Of a DNA stretch of 64,000 nt, positions 1 to 64,000 are shown piece by piece. Positions within the stretch are counted from its first letter, which is position 1. Every line of letters begins with the position of its first letter. Position numbers and translations under genes: made by a program. Source of the stretch: Tubulanus polymorphus (lineage: Eukaryota; Animalia; Nemertea); the NCBI RefSeq assembly GCF_964204645.1, contig NC_134036.1, forward strand, positions 5,176,600 through 5,240,599. Direction: 5' to 3'. The notes under the pieces are model-generated. The model ran no database searches. It was given only the letters and a program-made list of their open reading frames with translations, and was not told where the DNA came from.

Positions 1-239
1 AGTCTGCACCTTGGTACAGTTGCAGTTTTTTTTGTAATTATTGATTCGAATCTTGTTTCTACGTCTTCGAATGCGGGGTTTTCACTTCACCAAAATCAGA
101 AAGTTTTAAATACCGTCAAATCTTCCGTATTTGATTCTTAACGACAGTGATAGTGGTTCTGATAACTATCCGATTGATTTTCACGTTGAGACGCGCAGGA
201 GCAGCGAAAAAAACCATGTCTACAAATAATCAAAGTTCT

Positions 240-272
<33 letters not shown>

Positions 273-545
273 GACCGTAGTTTAACTCTGACGTTAATTC
301 TCATTTCATGTTTCTATTTTCTGAAAAAAGCGTTCAGTCTTAACGCTATAATCAATAATCTCATATTAACATTGAACGCTGATATGGGCAAAGATTCCAC
401 GGTGGCAAAGTTTGTGAATCAAGCTCAACATATAGTCAAAAAGATCGTAGCGTCTTGTAATTTTGTCATTTATTGCGCTACAAAGCGCCGCTTTCGAATT
501 CAGCCGAAATCCATATTATTTCGGATCCGTAATCGCCTAGGGTAA
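1..545 (+). pseudogene. Rhodopsin-family (class A) GPCR remnant, TM5-TM7 and C-tail, frameshifted
   Basis: ORF 147-545 has hydrophobic TM5 end (VIVVLITIRLIFTL), TM6-like LTLTLILISCFYFL and TM7-like SCNFVIYCATKRRFR. The upstream TM5 part (NLPYLIL, ~119-139) is in another frame; one extra base near 140 gives in-frame TGA at 132-134. Confidence 0.6.
242..271 (+). repeat. (CAG)10 microsatellite read as poly-Ser in the predicted third intracellular loop
   Basis: Direct count of the repeat; translated as a Ser run in ORF 147-545. Confidence 0.95.
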
Positions 546-17600: not shown

Positions 17601-19858
17601 CCTGAAGCTGACTTTTAGTTTATAGTCGAAACGTTGAGTAAACTACCAGTTCAAGTGAACATTTTCGGATTCTATTTTCTCGTCTTCATTGTGGGATTCT
17701 CGTTAAACTGCCCTAAAGGTTTTTGGCCAGTCAGCGGGACTCGCAGAACCCGCTTATCACGCCTCATCCCGCTGGCGGTGCCGCTTTCATGTCGCGGATA
17801 CGTACCTATTTTCCGTCTTCTGATTTCTTGTTATTTCTTTCTTTCTTTCGAAGGCGACGGCAAAATCGACATCGAGGAATTCGAATACGTGCTCGGCGAT
17901 TTCGGAGTGAAGAAACAAGAAGCGCGCACGGCGTTCACCATGTTTTCACAGGCAGGTTTACACGACGTATGTATCTCTGGTGTTAGTTTCTCTCTATATC
18001 CATTCGTATATCGATCGATCTCATCCAGAAACAAAATGGCCGCCTCCATAAATTTGCAAAAATCAATACTCGATCACCGTTGAAAGTCGAATCCGCGTTC
18101 GAATCTGAAACTATTGGACGGTTTTCGACCGACTGGTCAACGGTACCCGTAAAGGAGCCATTTATTTCTGGCGGAGACTTGACGCGAGTGTTTACCCGCA
18201 GCTCACGGCCACCGCTTCAAAGATTCGATGCGAAAGATATTATTAATTCGTTTGATTTTTTATAAATGTACGTTTATAGTTCAATTTCAAATGAAAATGT
18301 CTCCGCCGAACACGTGTGAAGTGTGGACGATCAGTTTTTGATAGTGCGCTGGTAAAACGTCTGATGTCAGGTGTTTATAGTTTTTATTTTCAACTGAAAA
18401 TGTCTCGGACGAAGTACGGAACATTCAAGTCCGGACGATCACTTTTTGAAAGTATGCTGGAAAGAATGTTTACTGTTATTTTCAATATACTGTCAGACTG
18501 AGTGTGGCGAACGAGTTTTTTTCATACTTTTTCATCTTTTATGCAATACACGATATAGCATGCTTGACTGCACTGCACGGAAACGTCCGGGGACATACAT
18601 GTAATATACAGTAATTTCATTAGAAATAACGATCCCAAATCGAAAATGAACACTGATTAAAAAAAAGGGAAAAATGCAAATCGACGATTCCACTTATGGC
18701 AAGCGAGGATCCGTCAGGTTCGCTAGTAGTTACCTCGCTCAATTTCTACTACATTCCACTGAAATCGGGCTAAACTTCTCACTTAAATGAGTCGATCAAT
18801 AACGAGATCTATACCAATCACTAAGTTAATCAAATTAATTTGAAAAAAAAATGAATTTAAAGTTTATTCGGTGGGCCCTGTGTGATGAATTATCAAATAA
18901 GATATTTCACGAAAATCAAGATCAAATAATTTTAGCTTCGGTTTTAGCCTAGCACATACAGCATGATTATCTACATGTTCATATTACTTTTTAATAGCTT
19001 TTTTTCTAGCTTCAAATATCTATCTATACTTTCACCATTCTATAATTAATGCATCTTTTTCGGTGATCCGCGTTTATTATCATTTTCTAAGTACGAATTT
19101 ATTTATTCATCATTTTTCATTTAAAAAAAAAATCGAAAATTCTAAGATTCGACATAGATTCTAGCGTCTTCTTTTATGATCTCGTTTCTTGAAATGTAAT
19201 CGTTTGAGAATGATTAATTCGCAATTGATAATTGGCGATGTAATGTGCCTCGAAAATACTGCCATCATTGATTTTTCTTGAACGAACGTCAATTTCAAAT
19301 GCGCACCAGGTTGAGGTAGGACGATCAATATAACAATTAGTTTTAAAAGAGTCCGTTCGCTCACGCTCGGAGAAAGAGTGATACGATTAGAACGCACTTT
19401 ATACAAATTTAAAACATTTAAAACAAAATCTATTAATCAAGAATTAAAATCATAATCCATATCTATTTGATAATGATAATGATAATATATTTTCTTGATA
19501 TAGCCGCATTTTCTACATAGTAATCTATGAACTTTACATAAAAAAAGAAAATTAAAAAATCGAAAATATATTTCTCAGTAAAATGCAAATCATCGAGATT
19601 ACTAAAGATATTCATCCAGATTAAAGTATTTATTAAGATTAAAATACACGATGCGTTTCGGACAAAGTTATAATTTGCATATGATTCTTTTTCAATTTTC
19701 AGAATAACGAACGCGTCATCGACTTCCCCACGTTCCGCAAACTGTGCGAAGAGTACTATACGTCGGACGATCCGAACGCCTTGGGTAACTTCATAACGGG
19801 GAAGCTGGACTTCAAAGTGGACGAAGACGGTGACGACGAAAAGGGAAAGAAAAAATAG
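11559..19858 (+). CDS. Calexcitin / sarcoplasmic calcium-binding protein-like EF-hand protein (219 or 229 aa depending on first exon)
   Basis: Shared exons 15495-15547, 16550-16687, 17087-17228, 17854-17951 (GC donor) and 19703-19858 join in frame to any of three first exons. EF loops DLNKDGVLEWKD, DKNFDGKISEEE, DRTGDGKIDIEE; fourth loop degenerate. LPKWLDMYV and GNFITGKL resemble calexcitin motifs. Confidence 0.92.
12647..12719 (+). CDS. Alternative first coding exon 1b: MGNSKSTLGVFRRDKLIHEFRTFY(D)
   Basis: Paralogous to exon 1a, same 73-nt length, phase-1 donor G|gtaagt. Confidence 0.85.
14449..14551 (+). CDS. Alternative first coding exon 1c: MGAKLAKAFESGSGPQPLSAFRKHKLTHDYHTFF(D)
   Basis: ATG at 14449; phase-1 donor G|gtaagt; LSxFRxxKLxH motif shared with 1a and 1b; candidate UTR acceptor ttacag at 14253. 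Confidence 0.88.
14743..15330 (+). repeat. Dispersed ~110-bp repeat family in short degenerate arrays
   Basis: Core aactacaaacacc...agacattttatcagcgcactttcaaaaactgatcgtccacac; also at 18265-18500 (-), 22760-23010 (-), 36320-36640 (+) and 37895-38440 (+). Confidence 0.8.
15585..16530 (+). repeat. 60-bp tandem array (~16 units) with a 360-bp higher-order duplication, filling an intron of the EF-hand gene
   Basis: Variant units at 15661, 15721, 15781, 15841 and 15901 recur at 16021, 16081, 16141, 16201 and 16261. Confidence 0.95.
16720..17035 (+). repeat. ~92-bp tandem repeat family
   Basis: gagtttgtgaaatacagtagactctgtctcttactgcggttaagttgag...; also at 37180-37625 and 47045-47230. Confidence 0.85.
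17555..17710 (+). mobile_element. Penelope-like terminus remnant with a degenerate hammerhead-like core
   Basis: ctgaagc-tgact...agtc-gaaacgtt, a short upstream inversion (cttcaggaat...attcctgaag) and tgtgggattctcgtta. Core is CUGAAGC rather than CUGANGA. Confidence 0.5.
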
Positions 19859-48199: not shown

Positions 48200-50820
48200 G
48201 CAATTACTGCAACTAATTTTACTTATACTTCTACGAAATGATTCATGAAAAGGATATTAACCATTGTTTGTAAATAACAGAAATATTAGATATCCGATCA
48301 AACACAAATTATATTCAGAATATTTAAAGAAAACCTTAAGATAGAAGTTGAGCAAAGGTCGCCATTTCGTTTCTTTCCTTATTTCAAACAGAATTGATCG
48401 TACTCCCTGGGCTATTATCCTGCAGTTTATATTGTTAATTGCTAGGCCGCCCTGTCGCAAGGGTTTACAGATAATTTCTGCCCTAACATGGTGTTTTCCA
48501 TATGACCAAAGAAAATCATTAATTTGGTTCTGTATCTTTTCCATGTAGGTGTTAGGTATTGGATATATCTCTGACACATACCATAGTAGGAAGAATAGAA
48601 TTTATAACTACGCGCTTTCCTTTGTAGGAAAGTTTTGTCTGACGCCATTGGTTTAATATGATTGATACTATGCTGGCTTTTCGTTTCCAGTTCAGCTTAG
48701 CTATGTCATCATGTCCAAAATACATGCCGTATATTTTTATATGTTTGTTCGGCCATGTAAGATTGTAAGGACTGTCAGTTCTATTTTTGGAGGCACCTAT
48801 CGATAAACATGCCGTTTATTGGTGGTCCACTTTAGCACCGGAAGCTTTTTCATAATCAGATAAAAAACATTGAATAATTCCTCAATTGATTTCATGCTGG
48901 TTAAAGTTAAGGTATTGCCATCAGCAAACTGTTTCATTTTACAAATACTGCCATCCGGTAACTTAATTCCTTTAATCTCAGCGTTACGTCTGATTTTTAT
49001 TGATTAAGTTTCAGCGATGATGACGTATAGCAACGCGCTCATCGGGCATCCCTGTCTAACTCCCCGTTCGAGGGAAAAAGGGGCTGTTAGGAATCAGTTA
49101 CTTTTGATTTGCGATTTAGGGTCAATATAGCACATTTTAATGTATTTGATCATATTTTCACCGAATCCGAATGCTTCAAGGGATTTAAACATAAAGGACC
49201 AGTCGACCCGATCAAAGGCCTTCATCTGGTCGATGGCTTTTAAAAATGCCTCAATATTTTCATCTTCTGTGTATTGAATTATATATCGAATTATATGCAA
49301 TTATCATGGATCCGCCTGCCATTTACGTTGCATGTTTGATCAGGGTCAATTATATCTGTCATTACCTTGATTAACCTGTTTGTTAGAGTTTTAGTTATTA
49401 TTTTATAATCATAACATAGTAAGTTGATTGGTCTCCAGTTTTCTAGGCACGTATTTTGGTTTATACATTCACACACTACTTGATGAAAGTCATATTGTAG
49501 GACATTCCAGAATTTCCTATAAAAGTTAATCGATATTCCGTCAATACCGGGCGACTAATCTAATTTAAACGATTTTAGAGAGTCAGTTAGTTCTTTAAGC
49601 GTAATAGGTCCATCAATCATTCCTGGGTTTTGAACTTGAGGTAGGTTTTCTAAAAAAAACGTCTGTTTGAAGTGGTCTGTTTGTTCTTTGGTGTACAATT
49701 TCTTATAGAAGTTAACTTTGACATCCATTATCTTTAAGTTCATTTTTTTCATTATACAGCGCATTTACATAGATAATCTTTCTTTTCCTTTTCTATAAGT
49801 TGGCGAATAATTTCGATGTTTTTTTCTCCTTCCTCTCTGCACTCAATTTTGGATCGTATTATTTTCCCTTTTGTTTTATTATCATCAATTTGTTTAAATA
49901 TGGTTTTAATATTCTTCAATCTATTTAAGTCGTAGTCCTGACCCTTACTTGCCCGACTCTCTAAAACATATAATTCGTTTTCGAGTTTACGCTTTAGTTC
50001 GTTCCTAGATCTAGAAGTGTCGCATGCAAATTTAATAGTTTTAGATTTAATAAGCTTTTATCATAATTATTATCATAAACTCCTTTGTGCCTTTGCCACT
50101 TATTCCAAGTGTCCGAAATCATGTCACCATTATTTTCATTATTAAGCAAATCATTGTTCAAATGCCAGAACCCCTTGCCGCGTTGAGGTTGGTTTGTGTG
50201 TTATGTCATTGACTTGTGGTCTGAGTGTATCGAGTTCAGGTGTTTTAATGTTTCTACATCATTTGTGACAGATTGAAAAACGTAAAATCTACCAATTCGT
50301 GTTATGGTTATCGTATTGTTGACCTTTGTTATTCTAGTAAACCCTTGTTTCAGGCGATTTAGTGACCCGAATGGATCTTCCAACCAATACGAATTGCACA
50401 ATTGTCCGATCTGTTCGGTGCCAATAGTTATTCTAGGGTTTGAATGAACCGATTGTCGATCTAGGGAATAGTTTTCGATGCAATTGAAATCTCCCCGACA
50501 ATTAATTTTGCGTTCTCGGATTTTTTGATAATCTTTGGTAAAGATTGAAAGAATTCCTTTCTTTTTTTCCTTATTCGGGGCATATATATTCAAGATTTTA
50601 AATTTTTCATTTCCAATGAATAAATTTGCTGAAATAGCGCGTGCTTGTGTATCTTTAGTATAGCTCGTCAGTTTAAAATCGATTTTCGCCTATAGCGACT
50701 CCGTTAACACGATTGGCATTATTATTCGTTATGATTTCAAAGTCGTTCATCAGAATTTAAAACAAACCTATTTGCCTCTTCGTCACTCTTAATATGCGTT
50801 TCTTGTAACAAAAAAAAACT
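48200..50820 (-). mobile_element. Decayed Tx1/L1-clade non-LTR retrotransposon ORF2 (APE endonuclease + reverse transcriptase)
   Basis: Motifs spread across frames: LQETH (~50800), NIYAPN, GDFN, SDH, GKGFWHLN, NWRPINLLCYDYKIITKTLTNRL, IDQMKAFDRVDW, GVRQGCPMSALLY, QFADG, GGLAI; multiple stops and frameshifts. Confidence 0.92.
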
Positions 50821-51618
50821 GTTAATTAGACCTGATAGTTGATAGTTGTAGCCCGGCTCTTATTTCTAGACATATCGGCCCCACTCCGCGCGGTTGCGCC
50901 ACCGCGCGGGTTTTACGCGAAGCAGCAGAACACAAACATGGCCACTCTCTCAATTTTCAATGATAGAAATCGTGTGTGCATTTCAATTATTTCGGCTGTT
51001 AGGGTTTTAAGGCACAATATCAGTTGATGATGTGATATGGCGATGTTAATTAATGATAATTCCGCAATGAAGCTAGTCACGAACGGTGCCGATTGAGTGT
51101 ACAGCTGCCAAAAACACTGAAATGTGCGTAGTTGCGTAACTATTTGCAGTGAATTGCAGACGAAACATGAAGCCTTAACGGCCGTTTAAAAGAAAATTAT
51201 ACCAATCGCAATTGTAAAATAAAAATGAGATAGAACCTAAGTTAAAATTCTGGCCATTTCTAAAATGTTATTACTAATTTTTAGTCAGTGCCGAACGTTT
51301 AGTTTTCCAACAATAATGAGGGGTGGTAGGTAGTCATGCAATTCAAGTCTTCATTTATTACACGTTACTTCCGTGTTGTTGAAAATCTCGCGAGTCCTGG
51401 ACCAAACCCTGGCCACAAATGCACACAGATCACACTACACTACCCATTACACACTCCAGTACCCACAGCTTTCATATATCCATCCAAATATTTAGAGTGT
51501 CTTTCTTCCTGGATACATGTATATACATTTTAGATATTGACTCTAAATCGGTGTTTCAAATAATATTGAATCCAAATTCAATATTGAAAAATTGAAGTTG
51601 ACACCTCGTGCTGCTGCA

Positions 51619-54600
51619 CTATTTATCTTTATGATTTTGGCTGCGTTTAATTTTTGCTCGTATGGATTTCATATCGATAGTCAGTATTGTGTAAAGAAGG
51701 GGATTGAGGGACGAGTTGATCGGTAAGAAAAGAACCGCCAGCCAAGCCGCCACTTGATTCGGTATTTCTACCCGCAATACCGCGCAAAACTGAACGGTTA
51801 TTATCGGCAGCCAGCAAAATAAATTACAAAGATTTATTACCAAACTCCTGCGTGCTAAAATCAGTTCTGTAGGGTCGATTCTTCCCGAACCGGACCTGCT
51901 TCCAGATACGAGTCTGTACATTTGAACATAAGTCGCCATTATCGTAGCGAGTACAAAGGAGTTGGATAATGAAAAAATAGCGAATGAATATTGCCAGGCG
52001 TTGACATCGATTGAAATTAAATTCATCGGTAAACAAACTCCGGTCGTACCGTAAAAATTGCTTCCGAAGTATTGAAATGGTGTAAGAGGTAGTAATACAA
52101 TAACACACAAGACAATCCAACATGTGCAACAAATAATGCACACATATCTTAGAGATGTAATCGGGCTTCCAGAAAATGGATTCACGATATTTGAGAACCT
52201 ATGACGCGTCATGATGAGCAAAAATAATAATGAACCTTCACAAGAAATAGTTACCACTACTCCAGCAAGTCGACAGAATCCACTGTTCGTCCATGATTCC
52301 GAATTCAGAAAGTAGATACCTTTATAAGTATGATCGGCTCCAGCGATCAGAAACAAATACATAGACATCATAAAATCACACACAGCAATATTAATGATGA
52401 TGATGTCTGAAGATTGATTTGAGGAGGAAAATCGAATTCCTCTAACGCGAAGAGAAATGACAATTCCGTTAGCCAGGAAACTGAATGAAGCGATGACCCA
52501 AATGATAGCTCTGAGGGCTGTGTTACCCATCAGATCAGAACAGGAGGAAAATTGATCAGCTTCGGGGAGGCACCGGTCAACGTTCGGAGCCATGCAGCAA
52601 AATTTGTAAGCGTCAGACATTAAAGAGACTAACGATGTCAGATTGTCGAAAACATTTCTGTCGACAGAAATAACTTTGTAGTTGTTGGTTATATCAAGAA
52701 TTTCAAGTGAAGTTAATCCAGAAAATGCGTATCGTGAAATATGATGAATTCTGTTGCCGCTGATATTCAGCGATTGTAATGTAGATAAACCCCTAAACAC
52801 ATTCCTACCAAGTGTGAGCAACATAAGTTCGCGAAGGTCAAGAACGTTTAGTGACTTCAAATCTGAGAATGTATCGCCATCTAAATCACGTAATGGATTT
52901 TCAGTAATCAATAGCACTTTCAAACTATACAGACCAGTGAATGTATTTGGTGATAATGATGTTATGTTGTTATATCTCAGGTCTAATGTATGTAGATTAT
53001 GCAGGTTTGTGAACGAGTTTGGTAATATATAAGACAATTCATTAGAGGAGATATTGAGCATGCGCAAATAGACATATGGAAACAATGTCGATATGTCCAA
53101 GATAATTTTGTTATTTGACAAAATTAAAACTCTAGTTGATGCCGAGAAAAGACCAGTAATATTTGTTAAACCAGTATTGATACAATCAACCAAATGACCT
53201 TGACACTTACAAGCTCGAGGACACGTGACGTTACAGAAAGCCTCGTCATCAATTGTGTGCTTACAATTTATGACACCATCGCAAACTTCAGTTTGTGGAA
53301 TACAACGATTTTCCTGACCACATTTAAACATTCCTGGACATAATAATGTCTCGCAGTTTTGTTCATCTTCTGAATTAGGACAATCTGATTGACCATCGCA
53401 CACCTGTCTGATTGGTATACAGTACGATGCTGGACATTTTGCAGTACCAGCTGGACATTCAAATTCTTCACATCTCAATACGTGTTCAAGATTTCTACAA
53501 ACTGGGAAACCATTTGTCATTCTTTCTAGAATACATATGTGACGTCTTGAATAACAATGAGGAGAATTGAAAGAACATCTTTGTTTATCAGGTTTTGCAC
53601 AGAGATTTGTGAAGTTAGTTGTACAGTAGTTTTCATCATTGCAATGAACCTCGGGATTCACTGTAATATTAGTAGTTGTTACTAATTCATCTTCTTCAAG
53701 GCTTCCACTACAATCCACGACACCATCCTGATACAACTGCCAACTGACACACTCTCCACTATTACACAGGAACCCCTGACACAGTTCAGTAGTGCATCCC
53801 ATTTCATCAGAGCCGTCGTTACAATTCGTGAATCCATCACATTTGTTAGACCTACTGATACATTGACCACTTTTACAGCGAAATTGTTCGGACAAACACG
53901 GGGGATGAATACACGAGTTCTCATCAGAAATATCCTCACAATCCTGTATGAAATCACAGAAACCACTTATTGATATCAACTGACCATCATCGCATTGAAA
54001 CTGACTGTGTAAATATATACCCGTACAATTAAATTCATCTTCACCGTGTCGACAGTCGTGTCTGGAATCACATACGCGATGGTCGCTGATACATCTTTGA
54101 TCGTTACATTTAAACTGCCACGATTTACAACCGCTTATGGAAGATAACTCTTCATCAGTTACATTATATGAACACAAAACAGAATGCACTCTATCTGTTT
54201 GATTATTCCAGGGTATCAATACCCAATTAACCGTATGATTATAAGTGATCTCATTCCTGGTAACAAATGGTTTTATTATCTTCCATTGGTTCTCGGAACC
54301 ATTCGTTAATATGGTGCCATATTGATGCTGATAATGAATTCCGGAAATCAACGTTTCAGCGTGTATCTTTTCCTGCATTATACCTATTTCACCACGGATT
54401 CCTTGACACATTTTTCTTGCTTTCCCAATATCTAAACTGCGGTTTTCGTTCCATTCTGTCAGTATCTGGTAACAATGCCCATCTATACTAAGCCAACCTA
54501 TTGTACAAGTTGCATTTATTGCATTACCTTTAAGGATGGGTTGTTTACTAGTTTGAGATGTAGCAGTTTTTGTTGAATTTCTCTCTCTTCCAGTAATATT

Positions 54601-57600
54601 TTTAGTGAAATCGATTCTTTCTGTTTCACAAATGAATCTCGTGTGAACCTCTTTGAGTTCGCAAGGGAATCGAACCCAGTTCGCCGATCCTCGTGGATTA
54701 TTCAGTAACATCGCCGTACACAGCATATTGACATCATTTATCGGTTGGTTTCTGAGAGGAGATATCAATCCTTGAATAACTTCTGGTATCGTATCGTTAT
54801 TTGTAGTTTTATACCACTCTGTGTAGCTCAATGGTTTTCCATCAGTCCACGTGTAATGACCAGTCCCAGGCTGAAAAGGTAAGTAAGCTCAGTCATTTAT
54901 CAATGCGTCCAATGCACAGTTACTGTTGTGACCTTTAATATACAGTACTCTACCTGCAGTTTTAATCCAATCATCATTATGAGCGCTTTCTGTGAATACG
55001 CCTCATTGACCAGGGGATATGTAGCGAATAATGTTTTTATAGAGATCATTTCCTGTTTCGAGTTGATACTGAGTAGATGTCCCGCGTACTTCTGTCTACA
55101 GTACAATTCAGCATTCTCCCAATTCAGACGTTTATCTCCGATATATTTTACGCATGAAATTCTTGAATCTAGAAATCCTGATTTACAGACATTTTCAAAC
55201 TGTTTTATCGGTTGCTGCTCCTCTAAAATGTATTGTATCTTGAATGTGGGTACTTGGTTTATCATCTCAAACCAGATCCGTGGTATCGCCATTAAAGTGT
55301 AAAATGTGATTCCCGGTTCAGCAAACCTATCGCATAGTTTGAATACGTGTCGGCCTGGTACTTGAGACCAATATATCGTTTGGATGAACGTGATGGAATC
55401 CAGTGCGAATGAGGGTCCTTTGATGCACGACGTCTTGTCTATAGTTTTGACAACGATTCGGTAAAACAGAATTCGGGTTTTTTCCAAACGAAACTGGATA
55501 TGGTATTTCAATAAAATATACGAATTTCCAGCGGATGCAGGGTAATTCGGCGACTGAATGATTCCACAGTCACCTTCAACTTCCTTCCTCAAAATTGGAT
55601 TGTTAGGGTGTGTTATTGTTTGGCACATACGCCGCAATTCAACTATGAACGGGGCACTCCCGAAAGAATTAGCGCTTCTAGAAGTTACGGTGTGCAGTAA
55701 GAAACTGTTATTGAGACGCTGAATACTGAGACGCATTCGGGCTCTACACTGTCTGACAATAAATCTGTTATCACGCGTGCATCCGCCGATCTCAAATTCG
55801 CGCCGTGATAATATCTGAATGCTATGTAACGGTACTCCGCGATTTTCGGGTGTAATCCAGAAACAGTGTGACGTCTGCACTGTCACCTGGCGTTCCCCTT
55901 CCCGTAGTATGTAACCGTCACAGTCAGTCGGGCGTAATTTTAGAATTCCGCTGCCCGTTTGCCTCTTTCGGCTGTTATAAACATAGGCTACTACGATGAC
56001 CGGTCCTCCTGATGTAATCATACCGATGGTTCTACGTCTATAACTCCATGAATCGGGACAATACGGACCGTATCGTCTAGCGGTGAAATTACCACCGTCG
56101 TATATGTAATATCCTGTATTGTCACAATTCACAGACACCAACAATAATTTCACCTCGCTGTCATCGACTTCAACTTTCCATTTGAATGCAAACAGGCGAA
56201 CACGATAATCCAACAGTCCCGAGTACATCATCGAGAAGAACAGCGTGGACATATCAATCGGTCTGTCCTTCTAAATATACAAAATACATGGATCAAGATA
56301 AATTTATCTAATCAATTAAGATGTCGGCTGAACGCTTCTTTCGCTGACTTTGAATCGCAGAGCATCCATGATTTGATACTTACTAAGGGTTTCTCGATGC
56401 GTATTTTCGACATCAAATGTTGCCTCATTCTATAGTTTATTCTTACGTCCAATGTTGTGATGTTCGGTCTCGTTAGGACGCACAGTACGACGAGAAATCC
56501 GTCAGATTTGACACTCAGTGATTTCAGGAAGTTGTTCCCGAGTAAAATATCAGTTCCTACAACGCGCAACGCTTCAAGTTTATATACACCGATGACGTCA
56601 CCGGATATGACGAGATTATATGTCCAGTTGAAGAGGACGTACTGTAACACCTGCACTGTGATAGACCAGCAGTGTAAGTGTTTTGATCGAGTTATTACGT
56701 GTAAACTGTTGTCATCGGGAATGAGCACTCCCGACTCGTTATTAGAGATCTGAATCAACGGATTAGAGACGTTCCAATCTGATATTTGGTACCTCTGAAT
56801 TAGAAGTGTAGTTGTTGTCTGGCGCGTACTTGGTGCAGAAATCAATGCCTTGTTTGTTTTGGTATAAAACGATGACGGCTGTTGTCCACTTTGTTCACCT
56901 AGAAGCGCTATCGGTTCACTGCTGGTGTTCCAGCCGTCATAGATTCGAAAACTCGTCGCTGCAACAGCGCCATAAATGAGCCTGAGATCTAAGTCTACGA
57001 ATGTGAAATTCATCCCGAAACCATCTCGGATGCCTTTCCATTCAAAGAACAATTGACATCGGTAATAAAGCGACATCGCGAATTTGTATCCGGTGGATGC
57101 CTTTATTTCATTCACTCGAGCTCTCGATCTCCAGCATTTGCGACTAGTATTCAGTTGCCCTCGTTCATAACGATACATGATATAAGCCCGACTACCGCGC
57201 GCACCATCGACGTTACTCCTAAACATCAACGAGATCGAATCGTCACGGCGGATTTCATGTTTTCCATCACCGCAGAATCTGTTATCGGACTCGTAGACGA
57301 GAAGGTAGTTATCACTACAGAATATTGACGGCTCGATATCGTGGTACATTTGGACGTGAAAAGTTCCCGGTAAAGAACTGTTGATGAACCAACGACATTC
57401 AACACCGCGCGTTAACGAAGGGTAATTCGGTGAAACGATGTAGCCGGACGTAGAATCTAGCGGGTACCACGTGTTGTTACAAGACGAACTTACCGTCACA
57501 GACGATTCCTCGATAGAGTCTGCGCGATCAGCGCGCGCGATGCGAACTTGACGGACGATCAGCGACGCTATAAACAGCGCTCTCAGCCGCTGCTCCATAC

Positions 57601-57610
57601 CGAACAACAT
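51619..57610 (-). CDS. GRL101-like (type C LGR) GPCR with CUB, C-type lectin, LDLa and LRR ectodomain, copy 1, ~1931 aa
   Basis: Exons 57610-56384 (KPL|gtaagt), 56270-54954 (ttag|KDRP...LKLQ|gtagag), 54870-51619 (ttttcag|PGTGHYTWTDGKP); introns 113 and 83 nt, both phase 0. CUB motifs (GYIVSPNYP, GIIQSPNYP), C-lectin (WENAELYC...HLLSINS...IGL...WTDG), ~7 LDLa modules, LRRs, hinge FCC...FSSCSDLM, 7TM with CWLP and NPLLY. Start codon uncertain. Confidence 0.9.
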
Positions 57611-60455: not shown

Positions 60456-63400
60456 TCATTTGTCTGTTCGATGTTGACTGTGTTTAATTTTTGCTCGAAC
60501 GGATTTCATATCGATGGTCAGTATTGTGTAAAGAAGGGGATTGAGGGACGAGTTGATCGGTAAGAAAAGAACCGCCAGCCAAGCCGCCACCTGATTCGGT
60601 ATTTCTACCCGTAATACCGCGCAAAACTGAACGATAATTAACGGTAGCCAGCAAAATAAATTACAAAGATTTATCACCAAACTCCGACGTGCCAAAACCA
60701 GTTCTGTAGGGTCAAATCTACCCGAACCAGATCTGCTTCCAGATACGAGTCTGTACATTTGCGCATAGGTTGCCATTATCGTAGCGAGTATGAATGTGTT
60801 GGATAATGAATAAATAACAAATGAATATTGCCAGGCATTGACATCGATTGAAATCAAATTCATAGGTAAACAAACTCCGGTTGTGCCGTAGAAATTGTCC
60901 CCAAAGTAAGGGATAGGTGTAAGAGGAAGCAAAGCAATAGCAAACAAAACAATCCAACATGTGCAACAAATAATGCACACATACCTCGGAGATTTAATGG
61001 GGTTTCTAGAAAATGGATCAACGATATTTGAGAATCTATGACGTGTCATTATGAGCAAAAACATTAATGATCCTTCACAAGAAATAGATACCACGACTCC
61101 AGCAAGACGGCAAAACGAACTGTCCGTCCATGATTCCGAATTGAGAAAGTAAATACCTTTAAAAACATAATCAGCTCCAGCGATCAGAAACAAATATATA
61201 GACATCATAAAATCACACACAGCGACATTAATGATGATGACGTCTGAAGATGGATTTGAAGGGGATAATCGAATCGCTGGAATGCGAAGAGAAATGACAA
61301 TTCCGTTAGCGATGAAACTGAATGAAGCTATGACCCATATGATAGCTCTGAGGGCTGTGTTGCCCATCAGATCAGAACAGGAGGAAAATTGATCAGCTTT
61401 GGGAAGGCATCGGTCAACATTCGGAGCCATGCAGCAAAATTTGTAAGCATCAGACTTTAAGGAGACTAATGATGTCAGATTGATGAAAACATTTCTATCG
61501 ACATAAATGACTTTGTAGTTGTCGGTTATATCCAGGACTTTTAGTGAAGTTAATCCAGAAAATGCGTATCGTGAAATATGATTGATTCTGTTACTGCTGA
61601 TATTCAACGACTGTAATGTAGATAAACCCCTGAACACATTCCTACCGAGCACTAACAACCTAAGTCCGTGAAAGTCGAGAATTTTTAATGACTCCAAATC
61701 TTTGAAGGTATCATCCTCTAGATGACGTAGTGGATTTTCAGTTATTAACAACTCCTTCAAGTTATACAAACCGGTGAATGTATCTGTAGATAATGATGTT
61801 ATGTTGTTATATGTAAGATCTAATGTATGTAGATTATGCAGGTTTGAGAAAGAGTTTGGTAAAATATCAGACAATTCATTGGAGGATATGTTGAGCATTT
61901 GCATGTAAATGTATGGAAAGAATGTCGCCATGTCCAGGATAATTTCGTTATTTGACAAAATCAATACTCGAGTTGATGCCGAGAAAAGGCCGGCAATATT
62001 TGTTAAACCAGAGTGTCCACAATCAATAAAATAACCCTGACAGTTACAGCCTCGAGGACACGTGGTGCTACAGAAAGCCTCGTCATCAATTGTATGCTTG
62101 CAATTCATGACACCATCGCAAACTTCAGTTTGAGGAATACAACGATTTTCCTGACCACATTTAAACATTCCCGGACATGAAAATCTCTCGCAGTTAAGTT
62201 CATCTTCTGAATTAGGACAATCTGAATGACCATCGCACACCTGTCTGATCGGTATACAGTACGATGCAGGACATTTTACAGTACCAGCTGGACATTCAAA
62301 TTCTTCACATCTCAATACGTGCTCAAGATTTCGACAAACTGGGAAACCATTCGTCATTCTCTCTAAAATACATCTGTTTCGTCTTGAATAACAATGAGGA
62401 GAATTGAAAGAACATCTTTGTTCATCAGATTCTGTACAGAGATTTGTGAAGTTAGTCGTACAGTTGTTTTCATCGTTGCACTGAACAGTAGGATTTACTG
62501 TAACGTTAGTAGTTGTTACTAATTCATCTTCTTCAAGGCTTCCACTACAATCCACGACACCATCCCGATACAAGTGAGAACTGATGCAATCTCCGCTGTT
62601 ACACAAGAACCCCTGACACAGTTGAGCAGGACATCCCATTTCATCAGAGCCGTCTTCACAATTAGTGAATCCATCACATCTGTTGGATACGCTGATACAT
62701 TGTCCACTGTTGCAGCGAAATTGCTTGGACAAACACGGGGGATGAATACAAGAGTTCTCATCAGAACTATCCACACAATCCTGTATGAAATCACAGAATC
62801 CACTGATTGATATAACGTGACCATCATTGCATTGAAACTGACTGTGTAAATTTATATCCGTACAATTAAGTTCATCGTCACCGTGTTGACAGTCGTGTTT
62901 AGTGTCACATACGCGATGGTCACTGATACATCTTTGATCGTTACATTTAAACTGCCACGATTTACAACCGCTTATAGAAGCTAACTCTTCATCAGTTACA
63001 TTGTATGAACACAAAACAGAATGCACTGTATCTGATTGATTATGCCAGGCTATCAATGCCCAATTAACTGATTGGTTATATGTTATTTCATTCCTGGTAA
63101 CAATTGGTTTTATTGTTCTCCAAAGGTTCCTAGAATCCTTACTTAGAATAGCGCCATATTGGTGCTGATATTGAAATCTGCTAATCAACTTTCCAACGTG
63201 ACTCAGATCCTGCATCTTCCCCATTCCACCACGGATGCTTTGACACATTTTTCTTGCACTTTTTACATCTGAGCTTTGATGTTTGTTCCAATCGGTCAAT
63301 ATCTGATAACATTTTCCAGCTATACCTAGCCAACCTATAATACAAGTTGAATTCATTAAAGAATTATTTAAAATGTGTGGTTTATTAGCTCGGAGTGTCT

Positions 63401-64000
63401 CATTATTTGTTGAATTGCTTTCTATTCCAGTTATATTTTTATTGATGTCGATTCTTTCTGTTTCGCAAATGAAACTCGTGTGAACCTCTTCGATTTCGCA
63501 GGGGAATCGAACCCAGTTCGCTGATCCTCGTGGATTATTCAGTATCATCGCTGTACACGGCATATTGACGTCGTTTATCGGTTGTTTCCTGAGAGGAGAT
63601 ATCAATCCTTGCATAACTTCTGGTATCGTGTCGTTATTTGTAGGTTCATACCACTCTGTGTAGCTCATTGGTTTTCCATCAGTCCACGTGTAATGACCAG
63701 TCCCAGGCTGAAAAGTTAACTACAGTCATTTAGCAATGTGTACAATTCACATTTACTGCGGTATGGCCTAAAATGAAATACTACCTGCAGTTTTAATCCA
63801 ATCATCATCATGAGCGCCTTCTGTGAATACGCTTCGTAGATCAGAGGTTTCATAGCGAATAACCTTTTAATGTTAATCACTTCCTGTTCTGAGTTGATAC
63901 TGAGTAGATGTCCCGCGTACTTCTGTTTACAATACAATTCAGCATTCTCCCAATTCAGTCGTCTATCTGTGATGTATTTTACGCATGAAATTCCCGAATC
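60456..64000 (-). CDS. GRL101-like GPCR, tandem copy 2 (5' part outside the window)
   Basis: Last exon 63707-60456, 77-nt intron 63784-63708, preceding exon from 63785 to the window edge; collinear with copy 1, same-length last exon and same intron position. Confidence 0.92.

Follow-up and report, generated by a model that had tools for sequence, protein, structure and literature searches.

A predicted type C2-like receptor with a CUB-lectin ectodomain in the nemertean Tubulanus polymorphus

Background

Three long open reading frames (ORFs) lie close together on the minus strand of a 64,000-nucleotide (nt) stretch of the Tubulanus polymorphus genome (NC_134036.1, positions 5,176,600 to 5,240,599; hereafter the window). 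Do they encode a single receptor and, if so, what kind of ligand would it sense? An earlier note, made from the letters alone, had joined them into a giant G protein-coupled receptor (GPCR) resembling GRL101 of Lymnaea, with CUB and C-type lectin modules added to a core of LDLa domains, leucine-rich repeats (LRRs) and a seven-transmembrane (7TM) domain. Among the leucine-rich repeat-containing GPCRs (LGRs), those with more than one LDLa make up type C2, for which no function has been determined (PMC8660763, PMC11863921, PMC4079206). Type C2 LGRs are orphans, and the roles proposed for them, as insulin-like growth factor (IGF) receptor, chemosensor or parasite-resistance factor, are in conflict.

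A three-exon gene model

We found that the three ORFs very probably form one three-exon gene for a predicted type C2-like LGR of 1931 amino acids (aa) with a CUB-lectin ectodomain. The long minus-strand frames (57634-56312, 56270-54900 and 54888-51619) could be joined, as the earlier note had proposed, through two short phase-0 GT..AG introns into 1931 codons with zero internal stops, and both introns contain in-frame stops. At the base composition of the window, chance alone would produce open stretches as long as those of exons 1 and 2 (409 and 439 codons) with P of about 4e-11 and 7e-12. The predicted parts are as follows.

51619..57610, minus strand: predicted three-exon gene, 1931-aa type C2 LGR, from open frames and junctions
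56384..57610, minus strand: exon 1, aa 1-409 (409 open codons, 1227 nt; Pfam CUB)
56271..56383, minus strand: intron 1, 113 nt, phase 0, GTAAGT..TTTAG, with more than one possible pair of ends
54954..56270, minus strand: exon 2, aa 410-848 (439 open codons, 1317 nt)
54871..54953, minus strand: intron 2, 83 nt, GT..AG, phase 0, within the C-type lectin domain
51619..54870, minus strand: exon 3, aa 849-1931 (1083 codons and stop, 3252 nt)

The reading frame alone does not fix the junctions, as it would be kept by 14 GT/AG pairs at the first intron and by 13 at the second. Junction 2 (54954/54870) is nevertheless well supported. The C-type lectin domain, which the earlier note had described as split by this intron, scored 47.0 bits when joined versus 26.2 for exon 2 alone and 10.4 for exon 3 alone, with colinear profile positions, against a profile built from 91 lectin domains of unrelated multi-lectin proteins. 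A tandem paralog carries an intron of its own, 77 nt long, at that codon (introns 70% identical, 216-nt flanks 86% and 93%). The junction is also spanned by alignments to the closest protein found, T. polymorphus LOC141911221 (P0001, 689 aa; aa 841-889, E 1e-9), and to Macrostomum P0040, which aligned continuously over aa 584-1926 (28% identity, E 4e-157).

At junction 1 (56384/56270), the amphioxus protein P0039 aligned over aa 200-526 (E 3e-7) with no gap at aa 409/410; with the amphioxus profile, the match of exon 1 was weak (E 0.01) and that of exon 2 good (E 2e-6), both on one diagonal. A second copy showed no difference at the GT or AG of intron 1 among the 40 listed of 143 differences. 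Another donor (56447) and another acceptor (56267) would also fit, and contig depth over intron 1 was indistinguishable from that of the neighbouring exon ends and thus gave junction 1 no support.

Receptor class

The C-terminal part carries the features on which the class of the receptor depends.

53230..54132, minus strand: LDLa array of 4 + 1 atypical + 2 units (6 LDLa by Pfam, 6 by our own profile)
52615..53223, minus strand: LRRNT and about 7 leucine-rich repeats (Pfam LRR_8 x5, E 2e-42)
52519..52614, minus strand: short type C hinge of about 30 aa, with no long gap or loop relative to RXFP1
51700..52518, minus strand: Rhodopsin-class 7TM (Pfam 7tm_1 positions 2-260 of 260, E 3e-20)

As expected for an LGR, LRRs and a hinge precede the Rhodopsin-class 7TM, and extracellular loop 2 (ECL2) has the C-phi-P-phi motif (defined in bioRxiv 10.1101/2022.01.22.477343) in the form CLPM (aa 1794-1797); the 7TM also has R3.50, W6.48 and NPxxY. 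LDLa units before the LRRs and a short hinge indicate type C, and the presence of more than one LDLa indicates type C2. The best match in the PDB was RXFP1 (7tmw, 252 bits, E 1e-73), followed by LGR4 (153), LHCGR (121) and FSHR (112); TSHR was matched too. The RXFP1 switch residues I396/S397, L402/L403 and F564/L566 (bioRxiv 10.1101/2022.01.22.477343) have F1622/S1623, L1628/M1629 and L1795/M1797 as their equivalents here. The GRL101/type C assignment of the earlier note was supported by the multiple LDLa, the type C hinge and the RXFP1 match, and its count of about 7 LDLa by 6 canonical units plus 1 atypical; LRRs, hinge and 7TM were likewise recovered by Pfam or alignment. The atypical fifth LDLa unit is common to 7/7 of the full-length relatives tested by alignment.

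The gene differs from a type C1 relaxin receptor, which has a single N-terminal LDLa, and from a canonical, single-copy GRL101 ortholog with 12 LDLa, as it has 6+1 LDLa and a tandem paralog. An adhesion GPCR was considered and rejected, with no GPS or 7tm_2 match in Pfam up to E 1; the amphioxus CUB/lectin/LDLa GPCRs of PMC2246102 are adhesion GPCRs.

A 7TM tree was built from 22 distinct rows out of 30 regions, with pieces of at least 220 aa (shorter ones, from P0011, P0071, P0074 and part of P0067, were left out) and without Lymnaea GRL101 or type C1 sequences. The two copies in the window and P0001 formed a clade (100/100) on a long branch (1.49). The tree gave no order for the deep forks and did not show the CUB-bearing receptors to be monophyletic, and Macrostomum P0040 did not group with the gene.

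The ectodomain

Upstream of the LDLa array, the N-terminus is followed by about six modules of about 110 residues and then by two lectin-like modules. Bits and hhalign scores of the CUB-like modules refer to a CUB profile that was seeded with relatives of the same receptor family.

57530..57610, minus strand: signal-peptide-like N-terminus, hydrophobic core aa 9-19 (9-residue hydropathy peak 2.93)
57146..57481, minus strand: CUB domain 1, aa 44-155 (Pfam E 2e-5 at aa 51-132; hhalign 41; 12.3 bits at aa 45-139)
56762..57136, minus strand: marginal CUB-like module 2, aa 159-283 (hhalign 17.3; -3.5 bits at aa 200-268; aligns with amphioxus CUB1; divergent between copies)
56384..56743, minus strand: module 3, aa 290-409 (no CUB score; aligns with the corresponding unlabelled amphioxus module)
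55920..56270, minus strand: CUB-like module 4, aa 410-526 (hhalign 28; 7.3 bits at aa 439-518)
55608..55919, minus strand: cysteine-bearing module 5, aa 527-630 (in common with Macrostomum; no CUB score)
55203..55592, minus strand: CUB-like module 6, aa 636-765 (hhalign 22.5; 3.1 bits at aa 636-707)
54619..55187, minus strand: C-type lectin-like domain (CTL), aa 771-932, by CTL profile, joined across intron 2
54160..54513, minus strand: second, degenerate lectin-like module, aa 968-1085, by family profile only

The signal peptide would probably be cleaved around aa 27. Four of the six modules scored as CUB-like (one strong, two moderate and one marginal), with hhalign scores above the maximum of 16.0 in 60 shuffles. 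By profile bits the best of 200 shuffles reached 4.3, and the score of module 6 was topped by 1 of the 200. The several CUB-like domains of the earlier note thus stand for these four modules and not for modules 3 and 5; module 3 is possibly a degenerate CUB. In ESM Atlas, exon 1 had CUB-type neighbours at 0.90-0.93 with a recognition of 2155, which is under the useful level, and exon 2 fell near CUB and lectin clusters at 0.90; both are leads only. AlphaFold2 models were of low confidence (predicted local distance difference test 30.3 for exon 1 alone and 31.6 for exon 2 with a 6-row alignment).

Where exon 2 ends, Pfam also detected the N-terminal half of Lectin_C. Calcium-dependent carbohydrate-binding CTLs carry EPN or QPD together with WND motifs. 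In the CTL identified here, QPI at 890 and WVR at 913 take their place, so that it does not qualify as a lectin of that kind, and in the family alignment WND is missing from 11/11 rows that extend over the site (the EPN/QPD sugar motifs are named in PMC5379193). Because these motifs are absent, proteins or glycoproteins would be likelier ligands than sugars bound in the classical calcium-dependent manner. The second lectin-like module, which lies beyond a low-constraint linker, could be recognized as a family profile against the CTL profile (probability 94%, E 1e-7, N-terminal 38 columns) but was not significant as a single sequence; the degenerate lectin module of the earlier note holds in the first form and not in the second.

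Relatives and spread of the design

Is this architecture peculiar to the nemertean? With the LRR-7TM part as query against proteins longer than 939 aa, the best 120 of 134 matches included 14 with 7tm_1; 6 of these 14 had LDLa, 5 of them together with CUB. All 5 CUB-, LDLa- and 7tm_1-bearing relatives carry a CTL by our own profile, one being from the crinoid Antedon (P0073), plus four others. Among the 15 scanned of 26 exon 2 matches, there were 2 LDLa-LRR-7TM receptors that also contain a lectin domain (Macrostomum P0017 and amphioxus P0039) and two CUB-lectin proteins without 7TM, which are likely fragments. The CUB-CTL-LDLa-LRR-7TM design is thus not unique, judging from these protein models of Macrostomum, Branchiostoma and Antedon and four further proteins. 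The shared core suggests a single origin of the CUB-bearing receptors, and the 7TM tree leaves the deeper order open.

The design is present in databases for at least 3 other phyla, and its CUB-array form seems undescribed. We found no published description of the CUB-bearing form in literature that covered few subscription journals; genome papers on sea urchins, amphioxus and flatworms may list the architecture in their supplements. The one paper found to hold both 'GRL101' and 'CUB domain', PMC7217437, mentions each once. CTL-LDLa-LRR-7TM receptors have been published for Biomphalaria, whose authors call the CTL unique (PMC12297450); that lectin-bearing form would be part of a wider CUB-array design found in protostomes and deuterostomes. 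In Supplementary Data 7 of the same paper, 7/7 CUB-superfamily rows are other genes. The earlier note had left novelty to a search: the architecture proved to be widespread, in several phyla, and so less novel than was suggested, and no characterisation of it was found.

Some of the related models had features of their own. In Branchiostoma P0039 and P0050, the 7TM is followed by a kinase-like stretch (partial Pkinase, E 1e-10 to 3e-10), an unusual tail for a GPCR. In Saccostrea P0062, two LRR-7TM units lie in one model, which may represent two fused tandem genes.

A tandem paralog

A second copy, which had escaped the earlier note, sits 2.85 kb upstream of the gene and is cut by the end of the window.

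60456..64000, minus strand: tandem paralog, 81% identical over 1087 aa, with an intron at 63708-63784

Its divergence is concentrated in aa 933-1085. The ratio of non-synonymous to synonymous substitution rates (dN/dS) between the two was 0.28 over 1155 codons, which shows purifying selection between the tandem copies at the level of the coding sequence. By part, dN/dS was 0.04 in the hinge, 0.19 in the 7TM, 0.23 in the LRRs, 0.29 in both the CTL and the LDLa array, 0.41 in the second lectin-like module and 0.96 in the linker.

Possible function

We tentatively favour, at a probability of roughly 0.4, a reading in which this orphan GRL101-type receptor is a diversified, immune-type sensor of large non-self molecules. 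Pattern recognition or chemosensing, as proposed in the earlier note, is something that we still infer, favoured by signs of family expansion; of the two, immune-type surveillance is modestly preferred. In Biomphalaria sudanica, 12 GRL101-like genes with a CTL are clustered in a schistosome-resistance region (PMC12297450).

Signs of expansion came from DNA-like contig sets under the same species label (run X1), with 3153 contigs over 13 kb, 763 of them over a 1.6 kb region of exon 1 and its flank. Summed contig depth, which is not a copy number, ranged from 2 to 156 times the intergenic median in 7 chosen exon bins, with exon 1 highest (112 and 156). In exon 1, many contigs matched the flanks of two blocks (about aa 150-220 and 235-275) and not the block itself. 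Together with the depth, this suggests many paralogs that also carry the CUB exon, with divergent patches. The CUB-lectin design thus appears to be much expanded in this lineage. Of 15 codons changed in two divergent contigs, 14 were non-synonymous and 0 were stops (25 of the 40 listed differences, 143 being found; 5 rows at 56121-56144 and 10 rows from a contig with compensating indels were left out of the count), an excess that is no test of positive selection, as the listed differences were selected by the tool, and that is compatible with relaxed constraint too. Among 26 genic rows (40 listed of 544), non-synonymous to synonymous differences were 14 : 3 in the ectodomain and 3 : 4 in the 7TM; these rows, too, were selected by the tool and are no test of selection. 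Listed exonic indels were mostly frame-keeping (3 nt; +1/-1; totals of 12 nt and 3 nt).

Perhaps the LRRs and the hinge keep the ECL2 loop outside the orthosteric pocket, by analogy with RXFP1. Binding of a large non-self ligand by the ectodomain would free ECL2 as a tethered agonist, and the freed loop would let the 7TM activate a G protein. The distal CUB and lectin-like modules would determine ligand specificity and vary among copies, to judge from the expansion and the patchy divergence. Varied external ligands seem likelier than one hormone because the expansion comes with variable distal modules. Given the kept RXFP1 switch, an ectodomain-deleted or chimeric receptor should signal, and the tips of the paralogs could be screened for ligands.

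Several points weigh against this reading, including the limits just given on contig depth and on the listed differences. One X1 contig, with a depth of 50 of 79, lacks a single nucleotide at 55602, which shifts the frame of exon 2; it may be a broken paralog or allele, and some copies may be broken. The 7TM departs from RXFP1 in having H for E at 3.49 and N for D at 6.44, changes that may give it a basal control differing from that of RXFP1. Junction 1 is less secure than junction 2, its basis being one amphioxus alignment and the splice signals; exon 1 had 0 relatives among 5571 longer candidate proteins, which is weak evidence, and scored 22.0 against a two-sequence Macrostomum-type profile versus 23.6 for the best of 30 shuffles. 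Functions are undetermined for all type C2 receptors (PMC8660763). In Biomphalaria, it is a neighbouring Zn-RING-IAP gene that holds the top variants, and not the GRL101 genes (PMC12297450), and the expression of expanded GRL101 genes in the tentacles and palps of apple snails (PMC6573481) fits chemosensing too.

The last point leads to the best surviving alternative, which we consider unlikely: the same protein could belong to an exteroceptive chemoreceptor family, sensing macromolecules of prey, mates or trails in head or epidermal sensory cells. Apple snails have 29-132 GRL101 genes, in tandem, many of them highly expressed in cephalic tentacles and labial palps (PMC6573481); the sensory tentacles of starfish are enriched for a GRL101-like gene (PMC6267866); class A GPCR expansions are very large in nemerteans (PMC11886862); and another part of the window has a fragment that weakly resembles a chemoreceptor. 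However, 1600 residues of CUB, CTL and LDLa modules in a row would suit large particles or proteins over odorants, and the closest published architecture is linked to parasite resistance (PMC12297450).

It is more doubtful that the gene encodes an endocrine receptor whose ligand would be insulin/IGF-like or a lipoprotein, as has been proposed for single-copy GRL101, with the extra modules as accessories. RXFP1 is the best solved relative, GRL101 has been proposed as an IGF receptor (bioRxiv 10.1101/2021.04.15.440029), and lobster LGR101 is neuroendocrine (PMC7600227). The IGF hypothesis, however, concerns a single-copy gene with 12 LDLa, whereas here there are at least 2 tandem copies, with signs of many more, and 7 LDLa; the 7TM branch is long, and a conserved hormone would presumably not need a diversified family.

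Marginally less probable still, exon 1 could be a separate small secreted CUB gene, with the receptor starting at exon 2 or at another upstream exon. The several frame-keeping options at junction 1 and the failure of exon 1 to match the databases or the Macrostomum-type profile would fit this. Against it, the two frames are only 113 nt apart with no AATAAA between them, no hydrophobic segment at the N-terminus of exon 2 exceeds the threshold, the amphioxus alignment runs ungapped on a single diagonal through aa 409/410, and relatives have CUB and 7TM on one chain. A decaying duplicate or a collapsed-repeat assembly mosaic is very improbable given the 5796 nt of open coding sequence, the paralog dN/dS and the intact switch motifs, even if many near-identical copies make mis-assembly possible, all contigs differ from the window letter at several sites and one copy is frameshifted.

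A broader form of the immune-type reading is about as unlikely as the chemosensory account, if not slightly more so. It would make these genes an undescribed, bilaterian-wide sensor-LGR subfamily in which the CTL-7xLDLa-LRR-7TM core is fixed and the CUB-rich tips are exchangeable, present here in tens to hundreds of copies with hypervariable CUB patches, and thus a diversified GPCR-based non-self repertoire; the single-ORF receptors published from the snail resistance locus would then perhaps represent just the final exon of genes of this kind.

Other features of the window

Just downstream of the stop codon, 51000-51560 had a summed contig depth of tens of thousands, indicating a high-copy repeat. 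At 48257-50689 (minus strand) lies a broken remnant resembling a retrotransposon without long terminal repeats (non-LTR), in several short frames, with an RVT_1 match (E 3.6e-5) on 49294-49554. The stretch at 135-545 (plus strand) resembles the C-terminal half of a chemoreceptor-type 7TM, with Pfam Sru/Srw matches of only E 0.04-0.06. An EF-hand-like stretch at 17619-18083 (plus strand; Pfam E 0.07) is likely a single exon of a calcium-binding protein gene.

Comparison with known systems

Human RXFP1 (7tmw) shares the hinge and ECL2 switch residues with the predicted receptor and differs in having one LDLa, more LRRs, a known peptide ligand, and E3.49 and D6.44. Lymnaea GRL101, and type C2 in general, have in common with it multiple LDLa, LRRs, a short hinge and a relaxin-receptor-like 7TM, and are orphans as well. 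However, Lymnaea GRL101 has 12 LDLa and, as described, no CUB or CTL, whereas the gene identified here has 6+1 LDLa and extends further at the N-terminus by about 1090 residues. GRL101 is single copy in ambulacrarians (bioRxiv 10.1101/2021.04.15.440029).

By their description, the SudRes2 GRL101-like receptors of B. sudanica have the same CTL-LDLa-LRR-7TM order in a tandem cluster, with few or no introns, several having a gene length of 3 x protein length; they are set apart by an annotated length of 857-1168 aa and no CUB term in that description (PMC12297450). The Biomphalaria GRL101 ORFs are mostly single frames of 1090-1168 aa, about the size of exon 3 (PMC12297450). CUB exons upstream of these ORFs may have gone unnoticed in that annotation.

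Within T. polymorphus, P0001 showed 69-74% identity in the LDLa and 7TM blocks, but it is a short automatic model that starts inside the lectin domain and has no CUB part. It also omits blocks that are open frame in both copies of the window; the model is likely incomplete or mis-predicted. The Branchiostoma GRL101-like proteins (P0039, P0049 and P0050) and Antedon P0073 share the CUB array, CTL, 7 LDLa, LRRs and 7TM on one chain. They differ in that the Branchiostoma models have 6 more LDLa, an SRCR and the C-terminal kinase-like stretch, and the Antedon one an EGF and an additional CTL. In M. lignano BOX15_Mlig009194g2 (P0040, 2163 aa, an unstudied model), identity is low and the first two CUBs are canonical, yet it has CUBs, a CTL, the second lectin-like module, LDLa with the same atypical fifth unit, LRRs and 7TM, and it is colinear with the nemertean protein from aa 584 to the end.

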